This document shows, piece after piece, positions 4,892 to 48,083 of a stretch of DNA of 64,000 bases. Below the pieces are notes generated by a model. It saw nothing but the letters and a program-made list of their open reading frames with translations. It was not told where the DNA came from and searched no databases. This stretch comes from Agathobacter rectalis (GTDB taxonomy: Bacteria; Actinomycetota; Coriobacteriia; Coriobacteriales; QAMH01). The stretch is from the NCBI GenBank assembly GCA_963590525.1, contig CAVAPV010000004.1, forward strand, positions 1,465-65,464, in the 5' to 3' direction. The position numbers and the translations under genes are program-made. Positions within the stretch are counted from its first letter, which is position 1. Each line of letters opens with the position of its first letter.

Positions 4892-5653
4892 CTATTTTGC
4901 GCTGGAGTGCTTATGTGGAATCAGCGGCGGAACAAGATCCTTGGGTGCAGGCGGGATAATCCAGGAGATGTTCTCGAGCAGATTGGACCAAACCTTAACC
5001 GCGTTGCCCACCAGCAAAGCAGAGATGATCGTCCCTTCGCGCACATGGACAAGCTGGCCCAAACATAAAAGGCTCACCAGCGCCGCCCCGCACATAAGCG
5101 AGACATCCCATATGACCTTGACGCGATGAAAGGGCAGCTGCGTCTTATAGGCGATAACCACTGGCGATGCATCGCCCGGCGTCATGAGCACGTTTACGCG
5201 CACGCACAGATGCACGCCCAGCCCCAAGACGACGATAGAGACCAGCAAGCACAGCAGCTGGCAGGGATAATTGGGCAGTGGGACTGCGGCAAGCAACGCC
5301 AGCCAAACATCCACAGATGCAGACAACAGCATGAAGAGCGGAATCTGCAGCAACTGCACCGGTCCAAACTCACGGCGCATGAGCGCAATCTCAAGCACGA
5401 AGTACAACGCGTTGAACACAAAGGTGAGCATGCCCATGGTGAGCCAATCCATGCCATGCCTTGCTGCGATCTCTGTGCAGACAGCCGGAAACGTAGAGAT
5501 AGGAGAAGTGCCGGTGCCAGAGTGCTTTGCAAGCGCGATTCCCAAGCCTATGCACAAAACGCCAACTACCATGACGACTGTTCTCAAAGCCAGGTTGGTT
5601 TTTGGGGTGCCAAAGACAGCGGCCCAACGCTCTTTTGCGCTCAATAAGATCAT
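4892..5653 (-). CDS. Polytopic membrane protein, YczE/YitT-like (DUF6198-type)
   Basis: Lies within track ORF 4892..5737. The internal start MILLSAKERW at 5653 is more plausible. It has multiple hydrophobic helices and the motif ..GLGIALAKHSGTGTSPIS... The function is unknown. Confidence 0.55.
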   Translation of the reverse strand: MILLSAKERWAAVFGTPKTNLALRTVVMVVGVLCIGLGIALAKHSGTGTSPISTFPAVCTEIAARHGMDWLTMGMLTFVFNALYFVLEIALMRREFGPVQLLQIPLFMLLSASVDVWLALLAAVPLPNYPCQLLCLLVSIVVLGLGVHLCVRVNVLMTPGDASPVVIAYKTQLPFHRVKVIWDVSLMCGAALVSLLCLGQLVHVREGTIISALLVGNAVKVWSNLLENISWIIPPAPKDLVPPLIPHKHSSAK

Positions 5654-5982
5654 CTTCTTTTTACGAATGGGATAGCAGGCAGCCGACGCGCATGCTCGCT
5701 TTTGCTCATCGAGTGTAGCACTCGCGCGCGCAGTCACAGGCCAAGCAGCGGACAGTGCGCCGTCGTGCGGTACAAATCCGCATCCGCAAGCGAGCTCAAA
5801 AGAAGATATGTGTCCTGAAAACTTCTCTTACTTAAATCGACTGTAGAACATTTGTTTGTTTTATGTTACAACGATAAACACTAGAACAACCCACTGCTTT
5901 ACAAGGAACCTACCCCCATCTTCTTGCCAATAGCTGCAGATTCAAGTTTCTGCAGTGCCTTGCGCAATTGACTAACTGTAGA

Positions 5983-6603
5983 ATGGAGTATACAGTGTCT
6001 TCATTGAGAATCTACGTAACGGATGAGTTTTCAAACTGGCTAAAACGCTTGAGAGACTCCAATGCAAAGGCACGTATCAACTTACGTCTCAGGAGAATCG
6101 AGACAACGGGAAACCTGGGAGATGCCAAGCACGTAGGCGACGGGATTTTGGAACTTAGAATCGACTACGGCCCTGGATACAGGGTGTACTTCTCTCAAAA
6201 AGGCGATGCACTGGTTTTGCTGCTCGTAGGAGGCGATAAATCCTCACAACAGCGAGACATCGCAAAAGCAAAGAAACTAGACAAAGAGTACAAACAGCGC
6301 GAGGTGAAAGGCAATGAAGACAGCAAAGAAATACGATGCAGCAGAATTCTTGGAAACCAAAGAGGACATGTCCGCCTACCTCAATGCTGCTTTAGAGGAC
6401 GGCGATCCCGTATTGCTTTCTGTAGCCCTTGGAGATATCGCCCGCGCACAGGGGATGACACAGCTGGCAAAGGAGACGGGCGTGACTCGCGATGGACTTT
6501 ACAAGGCGCTTTCCCCAACGGGCAATCCCTCATTTGCAACTATCAAAAAGGTCTTAGACGCTTTGGGTATGAAGATCAAAATCACGGCTGCCTAACAACA
6601 TAG
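5983..6603 (+). CDS. RelE/ParE-superfamily addiction-module killer protein (TIGR02683-like) with an abnormal ~100-codon C-terminal extension
   Basis: N-terminal ~100 aa: ..RIYVTDEFSNWLKRLRDSNAKARINLRLRRIETTGNLGDAKHVGDGILELRIDYGPGYRVYFSQKGDALVLLLVGGDKSSQQRDIAKAKKL.. This is the canonical family pattern. The frame then has no stop until 6601-6603. Confidence 0.8.
   Translation: MEYTVSSLRIYVTDEFSNWLKRLRDSNAKARINLRLRRIETTGNLGDAKHVGDGILELRIDYGPGYRVYFSQKGDALVLLLVGGDKSSQQRDIAKAKKLDKEYKQREVKGNEDSKEIRCSRILGNQRGHVRLPQCCFRGRRSRIAFCSPWRYRPRTGDDTAGKGDGRDSRWTLQGAFPNGQSLICNYQKGLRRFGYEDQNHGCLTT
6314..6595 (+). CDS. Addiction-module antidote protein, HigA family HTH (TIGR02684-like)
   Basis: MKTAKKYDAAEFLETKEDMSAYLNAALEDGDPVLLSVALGDIARAQGMTQLAKETGVTRDGLYKALSPTGNPSFATIKKVLDALGMKI. 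An RBS (GAGGTGAAAGG) precedes the ATG. Confidence 0.85.
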   Translation: MKTAKKYDAAEFLETKEDMSAYLNAALEDGDPVLLSVALGDIARAQGMTQLAKETGVTRDGLYKALSPTGNPSFATIKKVLDALGMKIKITAA

Positions 6604-6705
6604 ACGCATGCAAAGCAAAGAAGCCGCAGGCGTTATTGCCCGCGGCTCCACTTGCATCTGCTGCCTCGTGCATCAAAAGCCCGGCAGCTGCAGGTTTAGC
6701 CCCTG

Positions 6706-8574
6706 CTACTTAACCTTGAAAACGACCTTGACGGTCTTGAAGTAGGCGCCGTAGGAGACGCGCAGCTTGGCGACGTACCTGCCCTTCTTGGCGCCCTTCT
6801 TGAGGGTGACCTTGCCGCCTTTTACCTTGAGGCCCTTGGAGGCGGACACCTTGGACCATGAGGCCTTGGCGCCGGATGCGCTCCTCTTTGCCTTGACGGT
6901 CACGGCCCTGGCCTTGAGGGTCTTCTTGCCGGCCTTCTTCTCCTTCTTGGTGAGCTTGACCACCTTGACGACCTTCTTCTGGACCGCCGCCAGGGCGTCC
7001 TTGTCGCCGCTGTTGGCGGTTACCTGCGCCTGGGCTGCGTCGCGCACGTCGACCATCACGTCGAAGTTCCCGTCGCCCGCGTACTGCTTGGCGAGCTCGC
7101 GCTGCTCTGCGCTGAGGTCGCCGTAGGCCGTGATGGCAGCGTTGGCAGCGTCGAGGGCGTCTTGCGCGTTGGCGGCCGTGACGGGCACGTACTTGGACAG
7201 AACGTCCGTGATCATGTCGGCCGCGACGCGTGCGCGACCCTGGTCGAGGATCGACTGGACGGCGCTCACGCTCTTTGCGGAGACGAGCTCCTTTTGCAGC
7301 TTGGTGAGGGCATCGTAGGCGTCAAGCGCCGCCTGGGCGGCATCACCTGCGGCCTGGGCGTTTTCGCTTGCGACCTGGGAGTAATCCTCCTGCACCTGGG
7401 CTAGCTGATCTGCCACCTTCTTGGCAGCCGCCCTATCTGCTGCGGTGTAGGGATCATAGTCACCGTGCTCGACGGCGGTGAGAGCGGCGGCGCCGTGCCT
7501 GCCATTTATCTCATCGCAAACAGTCTGAGCCTCGTCCTTGGAGGCAAAGTAAACCTCGTAGCTCACCCCATTTTCTTTTGCGGTGAGCAGCCAGTTGGCC
7601 TCGCTCTTTGTTGCAGACTGAGAAAGCACCGCATATTTGCCACCTGCGCGCTTGAGCATGGCGTAACCATTGGCAACATCCTTGGCGTTGACATAATCAC
7701 CAAAGGTGCCGCCCTGGAACTGCGCCACGCCAGAGTCGAGGTAGCTGGTATCGATATTGTCGTTGAATACTCCGCCGGTGATCACAAAAACGGACGCCTC
7801 GTCAACGTACATGCACTCGTTGACCCAATCAGGACTCTCTTCAGTGCCGTAGTCGTACTTACCCGTAAACTCGCCACCGGAAATACGCACTTTGGTATTC
7901 GTGCGCGACCAAACGCCAATGTAAACCGCGTTGTCATTGTCAGCAGTAAACTTACCGCTTTTAATCTCGATTATCCCGCAATCAGAAGTACCAAAAGCAA
8001 CCTCGTCTTTAGCAACAAACTCGCCGCCGTTGACGGTGACGCTATCACAATTGTTAAGCGCAACAGCGTGCTTTGAATCAGATTTAAAGTTGCCGTTATT
8101 GAAGACAACGCTAGTTGCATCTTCGACTTCCAAGGCATTGCCCTCAGTAGCTGCAAACGTACCGCTATTAACAGCTACGCTGCCCTCTTTGACATAGACA
8201 AGCGGGTTATCTTTATCGTCTGAGTCTTCTGCCCACACAACGTTGACGCCATCAAAAGTCGAAGAGGAATTATAGAGAAAGGCTGCGGCGTCGGCACTTG
8301 CTTTGATTGTTCCGTTGGTAATCATCAATCCGCTGCAGCCTTGGGCCACAACCATGCCGGTAAGTGTTTTGCCGCCCAGGTTCAAAACGATGTTGTTCTT
8401 ATTTAAAAATCCAATGCCATCGCCCGCGCAATCAACAAGCAAGCAGACCTGGGAACCATCCACCGCTGCCTCGGCTGCGATTTTGAGATTGGCGTACGTG
8501 ACTGTGTTGCCATTTGTGATGACTCGCACAATGGGATCGCCCCATGTTCCACAGAGCGCAATATCAGCAATCAC
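6706..8574 (-). CDS. Body of a split surface protein: beta-helix-like repeats, an alanine-rich helical region and a lysine-rich C-terminal module. It has no signal peptide of its own.
   Basis: 622-aa ORF. The frame is open upstream to a TGA at 8665-8667, directly next to the G9 tract. Repetitive ..NGGEF/SGKF/SGGEF/TGGVF.. strands are present. The C-terminus reads ..ASWSKVSASKGLKVKGGKVTLKKGAKKGRYVAKLRVSY.. Confidence 0.7.
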   Translation of the reverse strand: MIADIALCGTWGDPIVRVITNGNTVTYANLKIAAEAAVDGSQVCLLVDCAGDGIGFLNKNNIVLNLGGKTLTGMVVAQGCSGLMITNGTIKASADAAAFLYNSSSTFDGVNVVWAEDSDDKDNPLVYVKEGSVAVNSGTFAATEGNALEVEDATSVVFNNGNFKSDSKHAVALNNCDSVTVNGGEFVAKDEVAFGTSDCGIIEIKSGKFTADNDNAVYIGVWSRTNTKVRISGGEFTGKYDYGTEESPDWVNECMYVDEASVFVITGGVFNDNIDTSYLDSGVAQFQGGTFGDYVNAKDVANGYAMLKRAGGKYAVLSQSATKSEANWLLTAKENGVSYEVYFASKDEAQTVCDEINGRHGAAALTAVEHGDYDPYTAADRAAAKKVADQLAQVQEDYSQVASENAQAAGDAAQAALDAYDALTKLQKELVSAKSVSAVQSILDQGRARVAADMITDVLSKYVPVTAANAQDALDAANAAITAYGDLSAEQRELAKQYAGDGNFDVMVDVRDAAQAQVTANSGDKDALAAVQKKVVKVVKLTKKEKKAGKKTLKARAVTVKAKRSASGAKASWSKVSASKGLKVKGGKVTLKKGAKKGRYVAKLRVSYGAYFKTVKVVFKVK

Positions 8575-8638
8575 AGGCTTGGAGAACTCGTAATCCGTTC
8601 CATCTTCAAGCTGCCAAGATTTAAAGCCTTTTTCGTCG

Positions 8639-9595
8639 CTAGACGGCGAGGAGGGGGGGGGTAATCATAGGCGCCTGATCGTAGAAGTGGACATCCCTGG
8701 TCTCTATATGGGACTGGCCGTCATTATAAGTAACGGTATGATCTTCAACCTTGTAGGCCACAGCAGGAGAGCCAAGCTCGGTAGCAGCCGTTTGGGCTGC
8801 CTCGTAGGTTGAGAAGAAAACAATATCAAGCTTTCCCGCACTAAGAACCGCGCCCTTGCTGTTGTTACCGCGCGCATCGGCCAGGTTCTTTACCTCGTAC
8901 GTCACACTATCATCGTTGTCTGCAACGCAAGCTACAGCTTTGCCGTCATCGAGCCTTCCTTTTAGAGGAAGCTCAGCAAAAGAGCCGCCTGCCAAGGTGA
9001 CGCTTCCATCAACAATGCCACTGTTGCCTCCCACAAAGGCACCTCCCTCAACAGTGGCTTTTCCCTGCGTCTCTGCAAGCAGGACATTCCATTTGTCAGC
9101 GCCCTCGTCATTGATAACTGCGCTATACGTTCCGCTCTTGACGGTCACACTGCCCACAGCGATATCGATGCAGTGGTGGTTGTAGGAAGTAGCAGTCACG
9201 CTGTCCAAAGTCACGTTGCAAGACGGCGTGCTGTTGGTACGCACAACGCTATTGTTGTAGCTAACAAGCGTGCCGCTCTTTACCGTGACGTTGGAATTCC
9301 TAACGTCAACAAGGTCTACTCCAGTTGTAGAGTCATCGGCATTGGAAAGCGTCTTGCCATTGAGGTCGATCACGACGTTGCCGTAGCGATTATCTAGTTC
9401 GACCCTGACCGTACCAGTGATGTTGCTTCCAAGCGTATAAGTACCTGCCTCATCAATCACGCAAATACTGCCCTCGGTCTTAAAATCCGATTGCGTCAGC
9501 GTCTTATCTACCGCAAACGCATTTGCCGGCAGCGCAAACAGCACCGCCGCAGCCGCGCTGGCGGCTAGCGCCAACAACGCTCTTTTCTTCTTCAT
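8639..9595 (-). CDS. Signal-peptide-bearing N-terminal part of the split surface protein
   Basis: MKKKRALLALAASAAAAVLFALPANAFA is a Sec signal. It has the same repetitive strand style as the downstream ORF (..VKSGTL.., ..VKSGTY.., ..VEGGAF.., ..LAGGSF..). It ends 5 codons after the C9 tract. Confidence 0.75.
   Translation of the reverse strand: MKKKRALLALAASAAAAVLFALPANAFAVDKTLTQSDFKTEGSICVIDEAGTYTLGSNITGTVRVELDNRYGNVVIDLNGKTLSNADDSTTGVDLVDVRNSNVTVKSGTLVSYNNSVVRTNSTPSCNVTLDSVTATSYNHHCIDIAVGSVTVKSGTYSAVINDEGADKWNVLLAETQGKATVEGGAFVGGNSGIVDGSVTLAGGSFAELPLKGRLDDGKAVACVADNDDSVTYEVKNLADARGNNSKGAVLSAGKLDIVFFSTYEAAQTAATELGSPAVAYKVEDHTVTYNDGQSHIETRDVHFYDQAPMITPPLLAV
8653..8661. repeat. G9 (coding-strand C9) homopolymer tract at the junction of the two surface-protein ORFs
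   Basis: Plus strand reads gagGGGGGGGGGtaatc. The coding strand reads ATG ATT ACC CCC CCC CTC CTC GCC GTC TAG. Confidence 0.95.
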
Positions 9596-9886
9596 AGGCT
9601 TAACTCCTCACTGCCCGCACCGGGCATAAATAAACCTCACAATAATACCGCCACGCAGCTGATCATATGGCGCAAAAGCGCCCGTCAATGCACGTTTTAC
9701 AACAAACGTTTTATTCAACGCACGCCACACCAATCGCACATGCAACTCGCGCCCAATCCCATCACGCCAACCGCCTCTGCTCGCCTGAAATAAAAATTTC
9801 TCTTGCGCTCGCCCAAAAGCGGGCTTATATTTCCAAACGTTACCTCGGCAAAAGGACCGAGAGTAGAATTTGAAAGGAATACCGTT

Positions 9887-24590: not shown

Positions 24591-25955
24591 CTAGTTCTTG
24601 AGGGAGTTGATGGGAGCGGGGAACCTTCCGCCGCGATGCGCAAAGACCGTGCCGGCGTTTTTGTTGACGGCCATGACGGGTGCTTTGCCAAACAGTCCAC
24701 CGTAGTCAACGCAGCCGCCCACATCCTGGCCGATGGCAGGGATGAGGCGTACAGCGGTGGTCTTGCAGTTGATGAGGCCGATGGCAGACTCGTCGGCGAT
24801 GATGCCGGCGATAGCCTCGACGCTGGTGTCGCCGGGGATGGCGATCATGTCCAAGCCCACAGAGCAAACGGCTGTCATAGCCTCGAGCTTCTCGAGCGTG
24901 AGGCAGCCTGCCTCGGCAGACCTGATCATCCCAGCGTCCTCGGACACAGGGATGAAGGCGCCGCTCAAACCGCCAACAGAGGAGCTGGCCATAACGCCGC
25001 CCTTCTTGACGGCATCGTTGAGCAACGCGAGCGCCGCGGTGGTGCCGGGAGCGCCTACCTGACCCACGCCGATGGTCTCCAAGATCTCTGCAACCGAGTC
25101 GCCCTGCGCCGGAGTGGGAGCCAAGCTCAAATCTAGGATGCCGCGCTGGTAGCCCAGGCGCTTGGATGCCTCGCGGGCGATGAGCTCGCCTGCACGCGTG
25201 ATCTTGAAGGTGGTTGCCTTGATAGCCTCCGCGATCTGCGTCATAGAGGCGGTGGTGGGCATGTCTGCGAGCACGGCACGCACCACACCCGGGCCGGAGA
25301 TGCCCACGTTGATGACCTCTCCAGGCTCGCCCGCACCATGAAAAGCACCGGCCATGAAGGGGTTGTCCTCAACCGCATTGCAAAAGACCACGAGCTTGGA
25401 TGCGCCGATGCACTGGCGGTCTGCCGTGAGCTCTGCACACTCGCGGATAACCTGCGCCATGCGCAAGACGGCATCCATGTTGATACCGGCCTTAGTCGAG
25501 CCGACGTTAACCGACGAGCAAACGCGGTCGGTCACGCTCAACGCCTTGGGAATGCTGTTGATGAGACGCTCGTCGGCATCGGACATGCCCTTTTGTACGA
25601 GCGCAGAAAAACCACCCACGTAATCAACGCCTACCTCTTTGGCTGCCTTGTCCATGGCAATGGCGATGGGCGTGAGGTCTTGCGCCTTGGTGGCGGCGGC
25701 AAGGGCCGCGATGGGCGTCACCGATATGCGCTTGTTGATGATGGGGATGCCGTACTCGCGCTCCAACTGCTGGGCCGTAGGCACCAGGTCTTGAGCGGCA
25801 CTCGTCAAACGATCGTAGACGCGCGTCGCCATGACGTCGATGTCTTCGTTGACGCAACCATAGAGGTTGAGACCCAAGGTGATGGTGCGAATATCGAGGT
25901 TTTGCTGAGTGACCATAGAGATGGTCTCGACAACGTGATCTGTTGTGACAGGCAC
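24591..25955 (-). CDS. UPF0210 / DUF711 (PFL-family) protein
   Basis: 454 aa. ..[12 protein letters not shown].., ..[17 protein letters not shown].., ..[13 protein letters not shown]... GTG start with AAGGGAG upstream. Confidence 0.8.
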
Positions 25956-26107
25956 GGCTGCTCCCTTGCGTAGGTTGTCTAAAAAGCCAGTTTTTCATTG
26001 TACCTGATAGCCCTTTGAGACCGTCTCCTACCGCCCTTATCCTGCTCAACGCAACCAAACTTTTACCCTGTGGATACATAAGCTCAACCCAAGGGCATTG
26101 ACGCAAC

Positions 26108-26152
26108 AAAAAAAACGGCACCGCTTTGCTCAAAACAGGCAAGGCGGCACCG
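26108..26152 (-). terminator. Intrinsic terminator downstream of the 26217..26888 gene
   Basis: Minus strand: CGGUGCCGCCUUGC cuguuuuga GCAAAGCGGUGCCG followed by U8. Confidence 0.65.
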
Positions 26153-26216
26153 GGTCTTAGTTCGATCAGAACATCAGGAGTATCTGATCGCAGGTTCGCA
26201 AAACAAAGAGCTGGAT

Positions 26217-26888
26217 CTATTTGCTCCAAAGCTTGTCAAAGCATTGGGAAAGCTTTGCGGTAAGAGGGCCTTCGTGCCCGCTCACAACCAACTCTCCCAC
26301 TTCATCGTTGACAAAGAAAAGCTCGCAGGAAGATAGGTCTTCTCTATTGACGGGTCTATCAACCACACCATATCCCATGGACTTAGCCAAAGTCCCTGCA
26401 AGATCCACCGCAAAAGACTCGCAAGCATCGCGCAAGCCGTTCTTGTTGACGATGACGAGCTCGTCTCCCATACGCACCAGCAGCGTGCCAGGCATGTTTA
26501 CGCCTGCGAGCTTGTCACCTTCCCATAAGAGGTCTTCTTCGGTCAGGCAAGGCGCAGGTACGCTAGCACCCAGCTTCATGTCCACGTCGCCGTTGGTCTC
26601 TACGATAACCACAACGATGCCACTGGGCTGCGCATAGAGCTTGTTGTCGCAAAACCACTCAAGCCGCGTGCGCAGATACGAGCACAATGCAGGACCAACG
26701 CCATACGCGGCAAGGCTGCGCAGCCTGCGCTCAGAAAGCTGCACCGAGCCGTTCTCGTAGCGCCAATGAAGCTCCAAACGGTTAGCGGGGACGTTTTCTG
26801 CAAGCCAGCGACGCTCGAGCTCGTCTTGATCGACTTGCTCTGGCTGATTAGCGGCCTGAATCAGATTGCGCGGCATTTCCTCGGTCAT
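26217..26888 (-). CDS. Hypothetical protein (223 aa) with weak aminotransferase class IV / ADC-lyase-like C-terminal resemblance
   Basis: Start ATG 26888 with AAAGGAG upstream. C-terminal ..CELFFVNDEVGELVVSG.. resembles the class IV fold signature. Functional assignment is low confidence. Confidence 0.5.
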   Translation of the reverse strand: MTEEMPRNLIQAANQPEQVDQDELERRWLAENVPANRLELHWRYENGSVQLSERRLRSLAAYGVGPALCSYLRTRLEWFCDNKLYAQPSGIVVVIVETNGDVDMKLGASVPAPCLTEEDLLWEGDKLAGVNMPGTLLVRMGDELVIVNKNGLRDACESFAVDLAGTLAKSMGYGVVDRPVNREDLSSCELFFVNDEVGELVVSGHEGPLTAKLSQCFDKLWSK

Positions 26889-31792: not shown

Positions 31793-31869
31793 TGGCACCC
31801 CCAACGGGATTCGAACCCGTGATCTCCGCCGTGAAAGGGCGGCGTCCTAAACCGCTAGACGATGGGGGC
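31793..31869 (-). tRNA. tRNA-Glu (anticodon UUC), CCA encoded
   Basis: Minus strand: GCCCCCATCGTCTAGCGGTTTAGGACGCCGCCCTTTCACGGCGGAGATCACGGGTTCGAATCCCGTTGGGGGTGCCA. The cloverleaf arms pair, and the anticodon loop is CTTTCAC. Confidence 0.95.
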
Positions 31870-47789: not shown

Positions 47790-48083
47790 CCGTACCTCCA
47801 GAGCAATTCAAAAAGGTCCAGTTGGAACTCCTCCCAACTGACCTGGTATTTGACCCCACACTCGCGCACTGGAACTTTTGCTTCGGCCGCGGTAATCCAC
47901 GACCCCACTTAAGGTTCTCTCGCCCCGGGGACCCTTTGTCCCCTATCAAAGGCGGTGCGTCTTACCCCTAGGACGCGCCATGCTCGCCGAGCCGTCAAGC
48001 CCGACTTACGTGGATCCTTTTGACCGCGTCTGCCTTGGACTAAGGAAGCTTATGTCTTCCCGCAACCACAGACTTGGGAGGAG
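47790..48083 (-). promoter_or_regulatory. ~290-nt structured leader with an intrinsic terminator and a long-range anti-terminator pairing (class not recognised)
   Basis: Minus strand: an extended -10-like TGcTACACT lies near 48090-48100. The leader 5' end CUCCUCCCAA (48083-48074) is perfectly complementary to UUGGGAGGAG (47837-47828) inside the terminator GGUCAGUUGG gaggaguu CCAACUGGACC + U5 (47843-47810). Several internal hairpins are present. GUGGGGUC is repeated twice. Confidence 0.5.

Follow-up and report, generated by a model that had tools for sequence, protein, structure and literature searches.

Repeat-mediated phase variation is best known from pathogens, and few cases are documented in gut commensals. 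Here we describe an interrupted gene for a large secreted protein, located at positions 6706-9595 on the minus strand of a 64,000-nucleotide stretch of contig CAVAPV010000004.1 (the whole stretch is called the window), from an assembly labelled Agathobacter rectalis and carrying a Coriobacteriia lineage in GTDB. A homopolymer of nine C on the coding strand divides the gene into two open reading frames (ORFs) and most probably makes it a simple-sequence contingency locus, with slipped-strand phase variation of a surface protein and the window genome in the C9 OFF state.

The closest precedent for the window locus is found in Bifidobacterium breve UCC2003, in which the sortase-dependent pilus genes bbr_0113 and bbr_1889 carry an intragenic G-tract that acts as a replication-slippage switch (Penno et al. 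2022, PMC9187656). Tracts of G10 and G11 separate a signal-peptide ORF from the pilin body in these experimentally studied genes, and tract-length heterogeneity was measured and shifts in the mouse gut (PMC9187656). Both systems belong to gut commensal actinobacteria, and in both a G/C homopolymer splits a Sec-exported surface-structure gene, the downstream ORF is without a Shine-Dalgarno sequence and a signal peptide, tract length sets the ON or OFF state, and the OFF frame is the one present in the reference genome. In B. breve the tracts are longer and sit directly past the signal peptide, at 8 to 65 codons from the start of the gene, whereas the tract described here has the length C8 in the ON state and falls within a folded domain at codon 312, so that a complete beta-helix block remains in the OFF product. 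The B. breve genes encode pilins, whereas the window gene encodes a non-pilin beta-helix protein without an LPXTG sortase anchor (it ends in ...KTVKVVFKVK) and without a sortase gene in the locus. Finally, switching was measured within populations of B. breve, whereas consensus assemblies from different samples are compared here.

The classical poly-G/C contingency loci of Neisseria, Haemophilus, Campylobacter and Bordetella share with the window locus a mononucleotide repeat inside the coding sequence of a surface protein, with ON/OFF switching by frameshift, and tract lengths that differ among near-identical strains (PMC11868660, PMC1891110). They differ in belonging to Gram-negative pathogens, often with many such loci per genome, whereas a single tract was found in 64 kb of an uncultured gut bacterium of Coriobacteriaceae type. 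Closer in lineage is the actinobacterial Mycobacterium tuberculosis complex, for which short homopolymer indels are reported to act as reversible frameshift switches, found by comparing many genomes and affecting other genes than the one considered here (PMC10334774). The searchable full-text literature, queried for phase variation together with Coriobacteriia or Collinsella, yielded no description of phase variation by repeats in Coriobacteriia; the one Coriobacteriia paper that was found concerns prophage recombinases and diversity-generating retroelements. This kind of switch is already well known; the gut lineage is a poorly studied one, and the family of surface proteins is uncharacterised.

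The elements of the gene, in window coordinates, are the following.

6706..9595, minus strand: the whole interrupted gene, 962 codons at C8, for a secreted beta-helix / Flg_new surface protein, delimited by repair of the tract and by intact syntenic orthologues
9604..9609, minus strand: GAGGAG resembling a Shine-Dalgarno sequence, 8 nt before the ATG at 9595, read from the sequence
9512..9595, minus strand: predicted Sec signal peptide, residues 1-28, with a cleavage motif between AFA and V, from sequence features
8639..9595, minus strand: ORF A, 318 amino acids, the OFF-state product, with the signal peptide, the N-terminal beta-helix block, a small alpha/beta domain and the first half of the Flg_new domain
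8653..8661: homopolymer tract, G9 on the plus strand and C9 on the coding strand, made up of the third base of the Thr312 codon, both Pro codons (313-314) and an additional C; in-frame length C8
8639..8641, minus strand: premature TAG, the stop reached in the C9 frame
8665..8667, minus strand: TGA closing the ORF B frame, 3 nt upstream of the tract, from the sequence
6706..8574, minus strand: ORF B, as mechanically called from a GTG start, 622 amino acids, comprising the remainder of the Flg_new domain and, beyond it, the second beta-helix block, an alpha-helical region and a Lys-rich beta-sandwich at the C-terminus
8554..8740, minus strand: Flg_new / Listeria-Bacteroides repeat (InlB B-repeat-like) domain spanning the tract, repaired residues 286-347, PF09479
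6620..6649, minus strand: terminator-like hairpin with a T-rich tail, 57 nt past the stop, with a 12-pair stem of which 9 pairs are GC; a consensus match only

An earlier note on this DNA, made by a model from the letters, had drawn attention to the split, and on re-reading the sequence its coordinates for the G9 run, both ORFs, the TGA and the stop are all correct. The coding strand across the tract reads ATG ATT ACC CCC CCC CTC CTC GCC GTC TAG, and ORF A ends in a five-codon out-of-frame tail (LLAV and the stop). The repeat lies in the coding region and its length shifts the frame: at C9 the product has 318 amino acids, and at C8, with one G removed, a single ORF of 962 codons without an internal stop is obtained. 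Adding two G's gives 963 codons, and the fusion foreseen for both changes was obtained. The N-terminus of ORF A, MKKKRALLALAASAAAAVLFALPANAFA followed by VD after the predicted cleavage point, combines a basic n-region with a hydrophobic core and an AxA motif, and residues P23, A26 and A28 of the signal peptide are invariant in 24/24 aligned family members. ORF B is without a signal peptide and has no Shine-Dalgarno-like sequence before its GTG at 8574. The assignment of a Sec signal peptide to ORF A and of none to ORF B was in this way borne out. The tract had also been placed at the junction between signal peptide and protein body, which is wrong, for the predicted signal peptide consists of residues 1-28 (9595..9512), whereas the tract is reached only at codons 312-314, some 285 residues past the start of the mature protein and one third into the gene. 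It encodes Thr-Pro-Pro in a loop of the Flg_new domain, after the complete N-terminal beta-helix block.

The repaired protein matches, at full coverage and with 87% identity, an intact orthologue of 958 amino acids (P0001) from a cluster of 55 members, and with 50% identity a second orthologue of 1,069 amino acids (P0002). The loci of both share the neighbourhood of the window gene, with an ATP-binding cassette (ABC) substrate-binding gene divergently upstream and DUF6198 and PNPOx genes downstream. These intact orthologues confirm that the two halves were once a single gene. In syntenic orthologues at about 89% DNA identity the tract occupies identical codons and has lengths of C7, C8 and C10, the ORFs being intact or split accordingly:

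C7: loci L006-L009 and L014, split
C8: loci L002, L010, L011 and L013, intact, 958 amino acids
C9: the window and contig L001, split
C10: loci L004 and L005, split

Tract length was found to vary among otherwise identical genomes, lengths of 7, 8, 9 and 10 having been seen. The C10 allele of L005, on a 141.7-kb SPAdes contig, and the C8 allele of L010, from Logan, have 0 mismatches in 9,014 bp and differ only by a 2-nt gap at the tract. The C8 allele of L013 (38x coverage) and the C7 allele of L009 have 8 mismatches in 2,959 bp in addition to a 1-nt gap. At the protein level, the ON/OFF pairs P0003 (C8)/P0009 (C10) and P0007 (C8)/P0004 (C7) are identical over their shared N-terminal 311 residues, and the truncated orthologues end as predicted, with TPPHLAAIK for C7 and TPPPHLAAIK for C10. 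Besides intact members of 958 amino acids, the P0001 cluster includes members of 336, 337 and 585 amino acids on long contigs; among the cluster members listed, some 8-9 contigs are OFF and 18-22 are ON. By Fitch parsimony on a neighbour-joining tree, no fewer than three independent changes of length are required to explain 12 alleles, and the C9 of the window adds another. Among the distant orthologues, P0002 reads TIPA at the tract site and L003 and L012 have no C run; the tract is thus confined to the two closer lineages, which are separated by a synonymous divergence (dS) of about 0.3 and both retain it.

Every OFF allele yields a complete ORF of 958 or 962 amino acids once its tract is set to C8, and none carries a second lesion. 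Ratios of nonsynonymous to synonymous substitution (dN/dS), estimated by the Nei-Gojobori method, were 0.195, 0.219 and 0.299 downstream of the tract for three C7/C7 (OFF/OFF) pairs. Between the window and the sister lineage they were 0.22-0.26 downstream and 0.19-0.20 upstream of the tract, and ON/ON pairs fall in the same range. The region behind the frameshift is therefore kept under purifying selection, unlike a long-standing pseudogene, and the OFF alleles are intact by repair and constrained by dN/dS. A fixed pseudogene was rejected, since the tract differs in length between alleles, repair restores a whole ORF each time and dN/dS is low. Two patterns had been named beforehand as refuting a switch, a uniform G8 as the mark of an assembly error and a single split conserved in relatives as that of a fixed pseudogene, and neither was found in the orthologues. 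Orthologous tracts of C7, C8 and C10 against C9 in the window, alleles that are otherwise identical and a downstream dN/dS of 0.2-0.3 lend support to the slipped-strand ON/OFF switch that the earlier note had proposed.

Signs of a possible exchange of sequence were also seen at the locus. P0020 (931 amino acids) is a mosaic, its C-terminal stretch of about 270 residues being nearly identical to P0003 and its N-terminal two thirds far more divergent, with 56% identity to P0001 over matched stretches, the best of them within 527-958; it is without the C-tract and reads EIPAAPV. Some of the closer alleles have an identical upstream half and 40-50 substitutions in the downstream half. The mosaic and the unequal halves together suggest, from the alignments, that recombination or cassette replacement may have taken place here.

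Neither Pfam nor NCBIfam gave a significant match when the repaired protein was scanned as a whole, and the Flg_new match emerged only when a 75-residue segment was searched alone. PF09479 scored 19.7 bits (E 9e-4) on the window protein, below the 27-bit cutoff and over profile positions 1-62 of 65, and 20.2 bits on P0001, also below the cutoff and with the full profile covered; on P0002 it exceeded the cutoff, with 33.1 bits for the segment and 28.9 bits for the whole protein. Most of 493 remote matches in a library of 1.84 billion proteins align exactly to the Flg_new segment, in multi-repeat proteins. The frameshift falls inside this single domain, which together with the intact orthologues shows the two ORFs to be one gene.

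An AlphaFold2 model was made of the orthologue P0001 from the 24-sequence family alignment, with a mean predicted local distance difference test score (pLDDT) of 79.7 and values above 90 over most of residues 30-700. In the model, residues from about 31 to 237 form a first beta-helix-like block. After a small alpha/beta domain come the Flg_new domain at 285-348, whose loop 302-319 holds the tract, and a second beta-helix block at 352-625. A helical region of low confidence (714-870) and a C-terminal beta-sandwich (892-957) follow. Foldseek against PDB matched the Flg_new part to the InlB B-repeat 2y5p_D with a template modelling (TM) score of 0.78, a root-mean-square deviation of 2.0 Å over 72 columns and a probability of 1.00. 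The tract-bearing domain accordingly shares its fold with the InlB B-repeat / Flg_new (PF09479) of Listeria monocytogenes (2y5p_D), but the likeness is confined to one domain of 60 residues, the window protein being without leucine-rich repeats or GW modules and otherwise a beta-helix. The rest of the model gave weak Foldseek matches (E 0.02-0.4) to tailspikes, alginate epimerases, EtpA and autotransporter adhesins or passengers. The right-handed beta-helix family PF13229 scored 17 bits against a cutoff of 25.9 bits in both P0001 and P0002, and the beta-helix part of the P0001 model is all-beta with regular short strands and pLDDT above 90. From the predicted fold together with the signal peptide we infer that the product is probably an exposed, adhesin-like surface protein.

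The Lys-rich beta-sandwich at the C-terminus is a module of about 90 residues (window 6706-6990, minus strand; repaired residues about 870-962) with the pattern KVTLKKGAKKG.Y.AKL.VSYG..KTVKVVFKVK. It matches no Pfam family and recurs at the extreme C-terminus of the large beta-helix proteins P0121, P0163 and P0165. More distant members of the family end in PxTGD, a hydrophobic stretch and RRR, which is a sortase-type tail. This LPXTG-type anchor occupies the position of the Lys-rich module, and the module may therefore serve surface retention, perhaps as a cell-surface retention module of the clade.

The switching of the gene may be depicted as follows: The poly-C/G tract would gain or lose bases through slipped-strand mispairing at replication. 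C8 is in frame (ON), as C5 or C11 would be, and C7, C9 and C10 are out of frame (OFF). In the C9 state, translation would end after five out-of-frame codons, and because neither a Shine-Dalgarno sequence nor a signal peptide precedes them, the C-terminal two thirds of the protein would not be exported, displayed or independently translated, so that the OFF state would have a null phenotype. The change would be reversible, loss of one C or gain of two restoring the full protein, and an in-frame change by one proline is probably tolerated in the surface loop of the Flg_new domain. The likely benefit would be escape from host antibody or phage aimed at the exposed adhesin-like protein; the natural ON/OFF polymorphism makes the protein a likely target of such pressure and points to fluctuating selection.

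Several observations weigh against phase variation as the explanation. All the tract-length variation was seen between samples, in consensus assemblies, and the lineage of the window is known only as C9, from an NCBI contig and a Logan contig that possibly derive from the same reads. C7 is common to at least three haplotypes that are 1-2% apart, in two studies; it has been inherited across haplotypes, so the tract is fairly stable and switching may be slow. Lengths of 8-10 nt are at the short end for G/C contingency tracts, and surface location and function are deduced from the fold and the signal peptide alone. Finally, the tract uses preferred codons and is absent in L003 and L012, and may be an incidental hotspot that was not selected for mutability.

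This last possibility, although unlikely, survives better than any other alternative. The tract would then be a slippery by-product of Thr-Pro-Pro codons and no selected bet-hedging switch, the loss of function recurrent and either neutral or favoured in some hosts, and most OFF lineages would lose the gene. Among Thr and Pro codons, ACC and CCC are used most often here, 44% each; the tract is built of these preferred codons and its origin therefore requires no special explanation. The view that the tract consists of unusual codons was likewise rejected by the codon-usage test. Absence of the tract from orthologues of 48-50% identity, persistence of C7 over several haplotypes and the restriction of known length variation to comparisons between samples also favour the hotspot. 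Base composition bears on the question in two ways. A single G9 in 64 kb is unexceptional against dinucleotide-preserving shuffles, and the two G8 matches, against 1.19 expected, were equalled or exceeded in 32/100 shuffles; the count is not improbable, so the significance of the tract rests on the comparison with relatives. Outside the tract, one G6 match was observed against about 22.8 expected from the dinucleotide shuffles, and no other G/C run in this window, which is strongly depleted of such runs, reaches a length of 7. A window that otherwise avoids G/C runs has nevertheless retained the tract in two lineages, which argues against a mere by-product. Neither are second lesions found in any OFF allele (0), and dN/dS behind the frameshift is as low between OFF alleles as in ON alleles, from which it follows that OFF states are young or regularly reversed. 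Slippage is about equally likely at C7, C9, C10 and C8, and on mechanistic grounds reversion is to be expected.

Two further observations concern the homopolymers of the window as a whole. The depletion of G/C runs fits selection against slippery sequence. The only other homopolymer of 7 or more is an A8 run at 26108-26115, inside a mechanically called minus-strand ORF (25624..26229).

A variant of the switch, by which it may be more than a simple ON/OFF device, concerns what OFF cells make. The tract lies behind a complete, folded N-terminal beta-helix block, and OFF cells could therefore still export a fragment. It is conceivable, if rather doubtful, that they export a free fragment of about 290 amino acids without the Lys-rich module, which could be a cell-surface retention domain not described before; the tract would in that case switch the protein between a form bound to the cell and one that is released and acts as a decoy.

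Very unlikely is a sequencing or assembly artefact, by which the true tract would be C8 and the gene intact and ordinary. Homopolymers are the classic site for indel errors, several of the supporting contigs have a modest coverage of 6.5-14x, and the earlier note had pointed to long-read or 454 errors as one source of such a split. The assemblies are, however, of short-read type, and each length recurs across samples and assemblers (SPAdes, with NODE_ names; MEGAHIT, with k141_ names; Logan) and in at least two studies, C7 being found in both ERR and SRR studies; the error scenario is accordingly improbable. The C9 of the window was reproduced in the independently built Logan contig L001, which runs through the tract and encodes exactly the same 318-residue ORF A product. 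In the sister lineage, 5 contigs have C7 and 2 have C10, the loci retrieved with C8 number 4, and P0003 alone has 10 contigs on record. Contigs apparently from the same strain agree, as do L006 and L009, and an error of +2 arising twice independently is improbable. Because the lengths are found again in short-read assemblies that differ in sample and assembler, a fixed pseudogene and an assembly error are both unlikely.

Least likely of all is recoding, by which RNA polymerase slippage or a programmed ribosomal frameshift would give full-length protein from the C9 allele and leave the gene not OFF. In its favour, RNA polymerase slippage can arise on long homopolymers, the frame is open right after the tract and the out-of-frame stop is only 5 codons off. 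Against it, the in-frame C8 form is the commonest in relatives and makes recoding needless, no stimulatory structure or slippery heptamer was identified, and the OFF alleles are displaced by -1, +1 and +2, which no single recoding event rescues. Programmed frameshifting was rejected as the main explanation on the grounds that OFF alleles are shifted in both directions and C8 is in frame, and recoding would at most yield a leaky OFF state.

With slipped-strand phase variation as the preferred explanation, public metagenome assemblies alone reveal the ON and OFF states of a large, probably exposed protein in natural populations of an uncultured gut actinobacterium. For annotation, both ORFs should be treated as one phase-variable gene, neither as a pseudogene nor as two hypothetical proteins, and homopolymer 'frameshifts' in metagenome-assembled genomes (MAGs) should not be corrected automatically.

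Searches beyond the protein clusters gave little. The genome-contig search had a sole match, L012, a distant locus from an uncultured Coriobacteriaceae MAG with 48% identity and without the tract. In the metagenomes of the Joint Genome Institute (JGI) there was no match to a degenerate DNA pattern across the tract or to protein patterns, and an exact look-up of the 622-residue ORF B found no contig. No paralogue of the surface gene or of its modules was present elsewhere in the window.

Among the neighbouring features, the hairpin at 6620..6649 is the sole terminator-like site positioned to end the transcription unit of the surface gene. Two overlapping ORFs on the plus strand at 5968-6603, between the surface gene and the DUF6198 gene, are absent at the same position in L002, L010 and L013; judging from their sequence they look like a toxin-antitoxin addiction module of the HigB/HigA type. 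The DUF6198 membrane-protein gene (window 4892-5737, minus strand) is called with 281 amino acids in some loci of the L002-L014 set and with 226 in others. A second slippery site in this gene was considered and rejected, the difference being due to which start codon was called and to a single CAA/TAA substitution within the 5′ extension. Farther away in the window, the only tRNA is a tRNA-Glu(UUC) at 31793-31869 (minus strand), and a raiA RNA motif (RF03072) lies at 47829-48082 (minus strand), with 163.8 bits against a gathering score of 101.3.

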